From NCBI RefSeq assembly GCF_003334335.1, contig NZ_QOWQ01000012.1: DNA of 64,000 nucleotides. One strand, written 5' to 3'. This document shows positions 26,845-59,181 of the stretch, piece by piece (the stretch's first letter is position 1; each line of letters starts with the position of its first letter). Both the position numbers and the translations under genes were made by a program. This stretch comes from Escherichia coli (GTDB lineage: Bacteria; Pseudomonadota; Gammaproteobacteria; Enterobacterales; Enterobacteriaceae). The notes below the pieces were generated by a model that saw only the letters and a program-made list of their open reading frames with translations, ran no database searches and had not been told where the DNA came from.

Positions 26845-28320
26845 TTACGTCAGATGCGTTTTTCGTAGCGCCAGATAATCCAGCAAACCACCAAGCACGA
26901 CGCCAGAAAGGGCGACTAAAACCCCGACTTCCAGCAGAGCAGGCAGGAAAGAGAAGTGCGTCAAATCCAGCGCGTCCATCGTCAATAGCAGTAACCACAC
27001 GGCCAACAGGCTGACGCCCGCCGCCAGTGTCCACATGGCAAAGGCATAACCTGCCGGATATGCGGTACGGGAGATAAAGTTGTCATTTACTCGTGTATAT
27101 TCAAGCGTCTGGCGGCAAACCAGCAGCAAAATAAGCCCTGGTACGGCAGCGGCGACGGAGAATAGATAGAATGTCGACCAGCCGTGTGCTTCAACAAACC
27201 AACCCGCCACGGGGCCGACATAAACTCGCCCTACAGCAGAAAGCGCTGAGAGCAGGGCAAATTGAGTAGCGGAAAATGACTTATTACATAGCGTCATTAA
27301 CAGCGCGACAAAGGCTGATGTGCCCATCCCGCCACAGAGGTTTTCGAAAAAGACGGCTGCGCCCATGCTGTAGAGATGCTTATCAGTAATCGACAGCAGC
27401 CAGTAACCGGCGTTAGACGCACCTTGTAAAATGCCGAAAATCAGCAGTGCCCGGAACAGTGACAGGCGCTGCATCAAAATCCCACCGTACAATGCGCCAA
27501 CAATGGTCGCTAGTAAGCCAAGCGTTTTGTTAACCACGCCTACTTCACCCGCATCAAACCCGACGCCGCGAATCAAAAACGTGGTTGTCAGGCTCATGGC
27601 GAATGCGTCGCCCAGCTTATACAGCACGATAAGAAGCAAAATAAGCCAGGCATTATTGCGACCAAAGAAATCTCGCAGAGGTGCAACAACCGCTTGTTCC
27701 AGCGTTTTTGGCACAGGAATGGTGTCGGTCGGTTCTGGTGCAAGCAACGTCGCGATAATACAGGGGATCAACAGCGCCGCCATCAACCAGTACATGCCCT
27801 GCCAGCCCAGCCATTTATCTGCCAGCCACAGGGCTAGGCCGCCGGAAACCAGCATCCCTAAACGGTAACCCAGAACGCTGATTGCCGCGCCCGCACCACG
27901 TTCTTCTGCCGGGAGCACATCGGTTTTCCACGCATCGAAGACAATATCCTGGGAGGCAGAGCAAAAAGCGATCACCACCGCCAGCGCCGCCATCCAGCGG
28001 AGTTGGGTGCCTGGTTCGAGAAAACCCATCGCCGCAATGGCGACTAATAACAGGATTTGCGTGGCGAGCAGCCAACCGCGTCGCCGCCCAAAAAATGGAG
28101 GCGTGTAGCGGTCCATCAGCGGTGACCAGAGGAATTTAAAAACGTAAGCCTGGCCTACCAGAGAGAAGAAACCAATGGTTTTGAGATCAATATTCTCGAC
28201 CGTCATCCAGGCCTGTAAGGTACCGGATGTCAGGGCGAGCGGTAGCCCGGAAGCAAAACCCAGGATCAGCAATATGGCTGAACGCGGCTGTTGAAAAATA
28301 CGTAAATATTGACTGGACAT
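26845..28320 (-). CDS. ampG: muropeptide (anhydromuropeptide) permease AmpG
   Basis: 491-aa MFS permease; sequence recognised; co-oriented downstream of yajG. Confidence 0.95.
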   Translation of the reverse strand: MSSQYLRIFQQPRSAILLILGFASGLPLALTSGTLQAWMTVENIDLKTIGFFSLVGQAYVFKFLWSPLMDRYTPPFFGRRRGWLLATQILLLVAIAAMGFLEPGTQLRWMAALAVVIAFCSASQDIVFDAWKTDVLPAEERGAGAAISVLGYRLGMLVSGGLALWLADKWLGWQGMYWLMAALLIPCIIATLLAPEPTDTIPVPKTLEQAVVAPLRDFFGRNNAWLILLLIVLYKLGDAFAMSLTTTFLIRGVGFDAGEVGVVNKTLGLLATIVGALYGGILMQRLSLFRALLIFGILQGASNAGYWLLSITDKHLYSMGAAVFFENLCGGMGTSAFVALLMTLCNKSFSATQFALLSALSAVGRVYVGPVAGWFVEAHGWSTFYLFSVAAAVPGLILLLVCRQTLEYTRVNDNFISRTAYPAGYAFAMWTLAAGVSLLAVWLLLLTMDALDLTHFSFLPALLEVGVLVALSGVVLGGLLDYLALRKTHLT

Positions 28321-28363
28321 GGGCGTCTACAGGCCCGGCTTGCACCGGGCCAGAGGGCAGAAA

Positions 28364-28942
28364 TTAACGCACGTTCTGCTTGATGAATTCGTGGATGCTG
28401 GTGTCCTGAGACATATCAGCGATGGTATCGGTCAGCACACTGTTAACCGCATCGGCGATATTTTTGTTGGAGGCCTGGAACGCACCTTCAACGTTGTAGC
28501 TGGCACGATAGTTTTTGGTCATTTTGTTGCCATTCTGCGCGGTAGCGATGATGGCGATATCCGCTTTGGTCGCGATGTTGTAGCGCACGTTGCCCTGGGA
28601 CACGTCAGCATACAGTTGGCTAACGATGATTTGCAGATTAACCGGGCCATTCGGACCAACCATGTAACCACGCGCGGTCATCTGTTTTTCCAGCACTTCT
28701 TGCAGCAGGAAACGCAGATCGCGGGAGGCGGTCAGGGTAACGATTTGATTATCGCGGGTGACTTTTGCCAGCGCCTGATCGGTACGCTGATCGGCACCAT
28801 TAATGCTTACGGTGACGCCCATCAGGCTTGGATCCTGCTGTGGCAGTGTAATCGTCGGGGAAACTTCAATAGTTGTTGGCGGTTTTGCGCATCCTGCAAG
28901 CATAAACAGAGCAACTAACGGGAAGAGGATTTTTTTGAACAT
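28364..28942 (-). CDS. yajG: lipoprotein YajG, function unknown
   Basis: Internal ATG gives 192 aa starting MFKKILFPLVALFMLAGC with lipobox LAGC. Confidence 0.9.
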   Translation of the reverse strand: MFKKILFPLVALFMLAGCAKPPTTIEVSPTITLPQQDPSLMGVTVSINGADQRTDQALAKVTRDNQIVTLTASRDLRFLLQEVLEKQMTARGYMVGPNGPVNLQIIVSQLYADVSQGNVRYNIATKADIAIIATAQNGNKMTKNYRASYNVEGAFQASNKNIADAVNSVLTDTIADMSQDTSIHEFIKQNVR

Positions 28943-54864: not shown

Positions 54865-55083
54865 TTAGCGAATAAATTTCCATACTGAGGAAGGGATCTT
54901 GTCGTACAGTTTATTCATGGTCAATTCGGCGAGGCGGTGATCTGCGGCTGAGTAAAATACCGCCAGTTCATTATCTGATAATTCGTATTTATTTTTCTCG
55001 ATAACACGCTCCAGCGTGTCAATTGTCTGGCAACGACGTAAACGCATTAAATAATCGGTTTTCGTTAAAGGTTTTTCGGACAT
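54865..55083 (-). CDS. hha: haemolysin expression-modulating protein Hha (H-NS co-regulator)
   Basis: Internal ATG at 55081-55083 gives 72 aa starting [27 protein letters not shown]; the supplied 154-aa ORF is an artefactual 5' extension. Confidence 0.93.
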
Positions 55084-55108: not shown

Positions 55109-55483
55109 CTAACAAGATAAACTCGCAGGATTCTCTTTCGTCGCATTGACAAAACAACGGAATAGTCGATTACCTGACTTCCGCCATTTCTGAAGATCCT
55201 GCATATTAATACCATAACTACTGAACAACATAAAGGTGTCATCCAGATATTCGTCGATCTGCTCAATGAGCTTATTGTCTTCATTATACTTAATTTTGTA
55301 ATTAAGTGCGAAGGTCGCAATATGCTCAATCAGTTCATTCAACTGGAGGTTGATCGCCGAGGTTGGGTCGTTTACCCAGCCATGATTGCTTTCTTCAAGG
55401 TTTGCAAGGCAGTCATGATACAGGGTTTCACAGAGAAACTTAAGCTGTGCGATATCATGTCTTTTGGGTGAGTATTCATCCAT
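55109..55483 (-). CDS. tomB: Hha toxicity modulator TomB
   Basis: 124 aa; sequence recognised ([31 protein letters not shown]); directly upstream of hha; formerly ybaJ. Confidence 0.93.
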
Positions 55484-55983
55484 AACGCGTCCCCTTCTTA
55501 GCGGTTGAACTAACGGACACCTTTCGGGATGGAAAAAACTTACTGACCTGGACTTGCCCTCTCGTTTGTTAGCTTAACTATAAGCCACTCTTTGCAGGTT
55601 TTCATCGCATTATTACGAAAAATTACAATTAGGAAGGAAGCGGGACAGGACTCATTTTTTCATACTAGCACTAACCCGCAGCAGGTAAAAGCAGTTTGCT
55701 CGAACTATTCATAACATTTCAGGATTATCGCCAGATGAAATTGGTGACACTAATACCAGGATTGCTCTGAATATGACGTAATAACCGAGGAATGAATAAA
55801 GAATTACCGCAAATAATTAAGAATAGCCTCTAAATGATTATGGATTATTAAATCTATTAGCGCTACTTAATATAAATTAACTAACAATCAGTATTTTTTA
55901 TGAATTTTATCCGTGGTTAATACTGGTTTTCGTATGAGATCCTGAGTTGGTGGTTCAATTACTCCTTAATGTTCGTAGGTTAT

Positions 55984-56010
55984 GCATAAAAAAGGCCGCT
56001 TACGCGGCCT
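55984..56010 (-). terminator. intrinsic terminator of acrAB
   Basis: Stem AGGCCGC / GCGGCCT with loop TTAC; on the minus strand it is followed by a U-run (A-run at 55985-55992), 19 nt past the acrB stop. Confidence 0.8.
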
Positions 56011-56028
56011 TAGTGATTACACGTTGTA

Positions 56029-59181
<3,153 letters not shown>

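Follow-up and report, generated by a model that had tools for sequence, protein, structure and literature searches.

Hha joins H-NS as a co-repressor of virulence genes and of genes acquired horizontally, and its toxicity and biofilm effects are modulated by TomB. For the tomB-hha genes of Escherichia coli K-12, genomic SELEX has assigned the hexamers ATGAAA and TATAGT to a constitutive sigma-70 promoter and placed an HNS flag on the spacer upstream (PMC3946193). SMRT-Cappable-seq maps the transcription start site (TSS) to MG1655 480795 and finds tomB in a single transcriptional context, in M9 and rich medium alike (PMC6131387). A promoter fragment reaching from -198 to -1 drives GFP and is repressed by Hha, which was found bound to its own promoter in vivo in a nickel-enrichment array (PMC2408971). 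Both tomB and hha are CpxR targets in RegulonDB, and tomB lies within the CpxR iModulon (PMC7657598); E. coli ChIP-exo does not place tomB among the direct CpxR targets. In the orthologous ymoBA promoter of Yersinia, CpxR~P binds in an electrophoretic mobility shift assay (EMSA) and raises promoter activity, with the motif 56 bp upstream of TSS2 (PMC13353760).

The stretch of E. coli DNA analysed here, called the window, is 64,000 nucleotides long and corresponds to MG1655 425226-489225 with 23 mismatches over 64 kb, a window position being the MG1655 position minus 425225. On its minus strand lie acrB (56029-59178), tomB (55109-55483), and hha (54865-55083). RefSeq annotates no feature between the end of acrB at 56029 and the start of tomB at 55483, and this spacer (55484-56028; MG1655 480709-481253) is our subject. 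The window has 38 annotated gaps of 50 bp or more, and this one, at 545 bp, surpasses all the others, as the original prediction had stated; the cyoA-ampG gap comes second with 459 bp. The very AT-rich tracts claimed for it are equally evident: its GC content is 37.8%, whereas the window has 51.5% and its gaps of 50 bp or more, taken together, 43.7%; a value of 23% is reached at 55800-55899, and no 100-nt stretch anywhere in the window is poorer in GC than one inside this spacer (19%). The spacer is 99.9% identical to MG1655, with one single-nucleotide polymorphism (SNP) at 55655; of 5426 complete E. coli genomes, 5424 contain it, with an identity of 98-100%. Elsewhere in the window, 12 of the 23 differences from MG1655 crowd into 663 bp (27709-28371, ampG/yajG), which points to recombination of this patch, the rest of the sequence being K-12-like.

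Related loci were collected by a TomB scan, which returned 80 loci from different Enterobacteriaceae species; the 72 species with complete flanks were compared together with the window (73 sequences). The order acrB-spacer-tomB-hha is kept in 73 of 73, and the spacer ranges from 435 to 559 bp with 35-40% GC. Since length and GC content are kept in all of these sequences, the long AT-rich gap is no accident of E. coli. As the neutral yardstick, four-fold degenerate sites were compared with E. coli; their identity is 0.35 in hha, 0.47 in tomB, and 0.61 at the 3' end of acrB. Far above these values stand a block at 55626-55612 resembling a CpxR site (0.985), the -10 hexamer (1.00), and the -35 hexamer (0.93), and the acrB terminator (0.83), the Shine-Dalgarno (SD) sequence of tomB (0.86), and the tomB leader as a whole (0.65) are also well above them. 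Near or below the yardstick are 55915-55800 (0.48), 55799-55641 (0.35), and 55984-55916 (0.025). The original prediction had named two observations that together would count against it, a single promoter close to tomB and conservation no higher than neutral. TSS mapping does give a single promoter near tomB, but conservation is not neutral, since the promoter, the CpxR-type box, the leader, and the terminator all exceed the four-fold sites. A repeat search of the spacer found no direct repeats, and its inverted repeats are chance pairs in AT-rich DNA, apart from a T-tract/A-tract pair that flanks a segment present only in Escherichia.

Very probably, the spacer carries the tail of the acrAB unit and, after it, the regulatory DNA upstream of tomB-hha together with the promoter and a short leader of that operon, with no separate RNA or protein gene. 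Published mapping shows that acrB transcripts end at an intrinsic terminator with a 3' end at 55987 and that tomB-hha transcription begins at 55570 from ATGAAA-17-TATAGT. According to the published fragment data, the proximal 198 bp are enough for promoter activity, and Hha binds this promoter in vivo and represses it. Under envelope stress, CpxR~P on a box at -49 would activate the promoter, and the approximately 350 bp of AT-rich DNA upstream would be a loading platform for H-NS/Hha, leading to negative autoregulation and conserved in length and base composition rather than in sequence. The 87-nt leader of the mRNA has a strong SD. The principal features, from acrB toward tomB, are as follows.

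55986-56011, minus strand: acrB intrinsic terminator from a consensus scan, with stem-loop 56011-55992 AAGGCCGCGTAAGCGGCCTT and then a U-tract
55916-55985, minus strand: variable spacer found in Escherichia only, 70 bp, containing AAGGAG and a 13-codon TTG open reading frame (ORF)
55958-55917, minus strand: the 13-codon TTG ORF itself, behind AAGGAG with 3 nt from SD to start, in Escherichia-only DNA and outside the mapped transcripts
55800-55915, minus strand: distal tract rich in A and T, where GC drops to 19-23% and short islands are conserved
55612-55626, minus strand: tandem box of CpxR type, GTAAT-TTTTC-GTAAT, with its centre at -49 relative to the TSS
55577-55605, minus strand: core promoter, with -35 ATGAAA (55605-55600), a 17-bp spacer, and -10 TATAGT (55582-55577)
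55484-55570, minus strand: 5' untranslated region (UTR) of tomB, 87 nt from the published TSS to the start codon

At the acrB end, the terminator has the form of an intrinsic one, an 8-bp stem with six GC pairs followed by TTTTTT, and is 83% identical across non-Escherichia species. The acrB transcript 3' end at MG1655 481212 is window 55987, at the close of the U-tract; of 19 reads, 12 terminate at this point and none continues past it (SMRT-Cappable-seq, PMC6131387). The core promoter scores 9 of 12 matches in a scan for sigma-70 hexamers 16-18 bp apart and has A2 and T6 in its -10, and in non-Escherichia species its -10 is 100% and its -35 is 93% conserved. The published TSS is window 55570, which is the seventh base after TATAGT and within a start distance of 5-9 nt, and the active -198 to -1 fragment is window 55681-55484. 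The original prediction placed the tomB-hha promoter in this gap, and the agreement of the hexamers with SELEX, the TSS at 55570, and the activity of the fragment support this; the long leader that it also expected did not materialize, the mapped 5' UTR being 87 nt. Approximately 415 bp separate the acrB 3' end from the tomB TSS. For coordinates published on U00096.2 we assume an offset of +778, derived via the hha coordinates of U00096.2. Converted in this way, a sigma-S ChIP-seq peak assigned to tomB spans window 55473-55668 and covers the promoter (PMC4447067). A PdhR site in the gap was considered and rejected, as the published SELEX peak and box convert, with the same +778 offset, to positions inside acrB. 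Downstream, SMRT-Cappable-seq reports a second TSS inside tomB, at window 55199 (MG1655 480424) on the minus strand, for a "novel" hha-maa transcript (PMC6131387), and genomic SELEX reports RNA polymerase binding upstream of hha, inside tomB (PMC3946193); hha may be expressed independently of tomB.

The most conserved block of the gap is GTAAT-N5-GTAAT, which in non-Escherichia species is 98.5% identical to the E. coli copy. The block at 55626-55612 is assigned by means of GTAAA-N5-GTAAA, which we take to be the CpxR consensus; when this was checked, a perfect copy was found in the cpxP/cpxR spacer. The tomB box is a tandem box that matches the consensus at 8 of 10 positions. GTAA-N6-GTAA occurs just twice in 64 kb, but consensus matches with up to 2 mismatches number 61 against 46 expected, such that a motif match alone is not above chance; the 98.5% conservation is. 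The assignment is credible because the near-invariance of the block is joined by its position, the RegulonDB and iModulon entries, and the Yersinia data. From the sequence, its conservation, and the RegulonDB and Yersinia records, we infer that CpxR~P binds GTAAT-N5-GTAAT. Another perfect CpxR consensus, GTAAATCTTCGTAAA, is present inside the tgt coding sequence (window 1480-1494, minus strand), upstream of yajC-secDF.

With 37.8% GC overall and a minimum of 19%, the gap has the AT-rich character of an H-NS/Hha silencing region. The suggestion that its composition suits H-NS/Hha binding is supported by the SELEX HNS flag and by repression and in vivo binding of the hha promoter by Hha itself. 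Lang et al. reportedly described, in 2007, TCGATAAATT as the high-affinity nucleation 10-mer of H-NS. This 10-mer is not enriched in the gap, which holds one match with 2 mismatches out of 87 across the window, so the case for H-NS binding here is built from base composition together with the SELEX flag and the Hha data.

In the distal half, mean identity is 0.35-0.48, no higher than at the four-fold sites, yet conserved islands lie within it. These were located by a search of 45 non-redundant sequences and are listed here together with a palindrome that overlaps one of them.

55891-55884, minus strand: island CTTATTGT, conserved among the 45 non-redundant sequences
55877-55869, minus strand: island aTTTATTTT, conserved among the same 45
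55771-55758, minus strand: island tTAaGAaTATTCCT, conserved among the same 45
55707-55720, minus strand: island cTAActtaATGAAt, conserved among the same 45
55757-55770, minus strand: degenerate palindrome copy TCAGAGCAATCCTG, where other genera read TAAGAATATTCCTg, which resembles an RcsAB box

Sites for IHF, PhoP, or ArcA were tried by eye on CTTATTGT and aTTTATTTT and were rejected because spacing or sequence did not fit. Wehland and Bernhard are said to have given, in 2000, the 14-bp RcsAB box consensus as TaAGaatatTCctA; T1, A3, G4, T10, C11, and A14 were scored as its core, and as a check of the consensus the upstream regions of E. coli rcsA and wza were found to hold core-conforming sites (10/14 and 9/14, respectively). 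Of the 80 related loci, 54 have the palindrome TAAGAATATTCCTA at the same place with up to 2 mismatches; the copy in Kluyvera ascorbata is exact, and just three such matches are found elsewhere in those 5-kb loci. It lies approximately 300-330 bp upstream of tomB in the related loci (L006-L081; for example, positions 2189-2202 of L072). The E. coli copy TCAGAGCAATCCTG does not pass as an RcsAB box, with 9/14 matches and five of six core bases, A14 being replaced by G. Nearby, two more half-sites of the ATTCTTA type recur (55830-55817 and 55806-55797 in E. coli).

On the basis of these sequence patterns, the distal half might form a second regulatory module, although we regard this as a speculative and rather unlikely proposal. 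An RcsB-type site (RcsAB or RcsB-BglJ-like) and a conserved upstream -10 would normally be covered by H-NS/Hha, and Rcs would drive or de-silence tomB-hha in most Enterobacteriaceae, with Escherichia having partly lost the input. If true, an Rcs input would add to the known Cpx envelope-stress input at tomB-hha, and the islands would suggest a second envelope-stress pathway into H-NS/Hha silencing, in which E. coli is unlike its relatives.

A different use of the distal DNA would be a promoter of its own, at the hexamer near 55850-55845 or at an extended -10, TGcTAGTAT, at 55670-55662, giving a tomB-hha mRNA with a long leader of approximately 170-355 nt that is silenced by H-NS in laboratory culture. 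This seems quite improbable. A strong -10-like hexamer does recur at aligned positions 55854-55843 in 36 of 45 species (E. coli near 55850-55845) and at 55668-55657 in 18 of 45, but such hexamers are common in AT-rich DNA, and a scan found no convincing -35 at 16-18 bp from either one. In Yersinia, TSSs of ymoBA have been mapped at both -188 and -106 (PMC13353760), whereas in E. coli the data from M9 and rich medium assign tomB a single TSS and a single context of transcription (PMC6131387). With bicyclomycin, Term-seq reads downstream of 481133 (window 55908) double from 281 to 589 while those upstream are unchanged at 99 versus 100, and the site is flagged as a Rho region (PMC7815308). The simple single-promoter picture does not explain this doubling; however, the 800-nt window used for it spans all of tomB, so that it locates neither a terminator nor a new promoter, and the effect may arise 3' of the known TSS. 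Far more improbable still is an unannotated gene here for a small protein or a small RNA, a possibility that had been raised from the sequence. Fifteen ORFs of 8 codons or more begin in the gap, and a strong SD precedes just one of them, the 13-codon TTG ORF (55958-55917) after AAGGAG; a second point in favor of a hidden gene is the conserved ATG at 55712, within the island at 55720-55707. But the AAGGAG ORF has only 3 nt between SD and start, starts beyond the mapped 3' end of acrB and stops short of the tomB TSS, and belongs to the Escherichia-only segment, which has 2.5% identity to non-Escherichia species and varies even from one Escherichia species to another. The ORF from the island ATG varies from 3 to 46 codons with zero peptide conservation, and the ORF from the ATG of the -35 hexamer, which starts upstream of the TSS, has 21 codons in E. 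coli and 3-6 codons in most species; across species, the two together span 3-62 codons, and neither peptide is conserved. NCBIfam has no match for the gap's four ORFs of at least 20 amino acids, and Rfam at permissive thresholds gives chance-level matches only (Trp_leader and isrK over the terminator, E ≥ 1.5), none of which clears E = 1. Within the gap, the published SMRT-Cappable-seq (PMC6131387) and Term-seq (PMC7815308) tables list no inner TSS and no curated 3' end, with zero Term-seq 3' ends. The earlier statement that no ORF here has a ribosome binding site thus essentially holds, the sole SD-preceded ORF being unconserved and untranscribed, and the suggested small RNA or small protein is not borne out by Rfam, inner TSSs, curated 3' ends, or conserved ORFs.

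The leader raises a further alternative, which involves three short elements.

55496-55491, minus strand: SD AAGGGG, 86% conserved
55531-55526, minus strand: C-rich CAUCCC, complementary to the SD in nearly all species
approximately 55513-55498, minus strand: small hairpin just before the SD

Pairing of CAUCCC with GGGAUG/GGGGAC would sequester the SD and regulate translation; when translation is poor, Rho would gain access to the early ORF and produce a 3' end 72 nt into tomB. Term-seq does show strong minus-strand 3' ends at window 55411 (MG1655 480636; 72 nt into tomB) and 55082 (480307; hha start codon) (PMC7815308), and the former, whose intrinsic terminator score is 2.73, falls inside a region scored as significant for Rho. 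The CAUCCC:SD helix can pair in 95% of cells over 68 sequences, many single-sequence folds pair the two segments, and one pair of the inner hairpin switches from U-A (24 sequences) to G-C (20 sequences). Against this, the SD helix is nearly invariant and has zero covariation, the RNAalifold consensus is weak (4 pairs, -5.7 kcal/mol), shuffled versions of the E. coli leader are as stable as the leader itself (z = 0.02), and the helix of Escherichia contains an A-C mismatch. We consider SD sequestration with Rho exposure unlikely; translation-coupled attenuation at the tomB leader is possible. An RNA from the TSS at 55570 to the 3' end at 55411 would be a 160-nt leader-plus-early-ORF species. 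At the 5' end of the leader, +2 to +8 (aligned to window 55570-55564), non-Escherichia species share AtCAGGA where E. coli has AACAAAC; AtCAGGA holds a GGA motif, of the kind bound by CsrA.

Some natural and engineered variants alter the spacer. Its coverage is below 80% in 34 of the 5424 E. coli genomes. In E. coli TUM13773 (locus L084, 1642-2405), IS1 replaces 380 bp, corresponding to window 55541-55920; it removes the tomB TSS, the -10, the -35, the CpxR box, and all of the distal islands and leaves just 57 nt upstream of tomB. A mini-transposon carrying DARS1 in the tomB-acrB spacer was among the clones selected in a 700-generation competition, for which its authors had no explanation (PMC5010248).

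For the reading we prefer, an acrAB 3' end followed by the regulatory region, promoter, and short leader of tomB-hha, the promoter, TSS, Cpx input, Hha autorepression, and acrB terminator are already published, and confirming them brings no new biology. Given the roles of Hha and TomB, the control of tomB-hha is of real but specialist interest, and the distal islands are the sole part of the gap able to yield something new.

The locus is the same as tomB-hha of E. coli K-12 (ybaJ-hha; RegulonDB/EcoCyc, Garcia-Contreras et al. 2008), with the same hexamers, TSS, and Hha autorepression; in the promoter region nothing material differs, and there is one SNP, at 55655. Compared with known RcsAB boxes, the predicted site scores 12-14 of 14 in most non-Escherichia genera, better than the E. 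coli rcsA (10) and wza (9) sites, but its position approximately 200 bp upstream of the TSS is unusual. As at cpxP and other Cpx-activated promoters, the CpxR-type box has tandem GTAA cores at 5-bp spacing immediately upstream of the -35; unlike in cpxP (GTAAA-N5-GTAAA), both tomB pentamers end in T rather than A, and no E. coli ChIP-exo peak is reported. The ymoB-ymoA operon of Yersinia is orthologous and differs in having a second mapped TSS at -188 (PMC13353760), where E. coli has one reported, at -87; in both, a CpxR motif stands approximately 50-56 bp upstream of a TSS.
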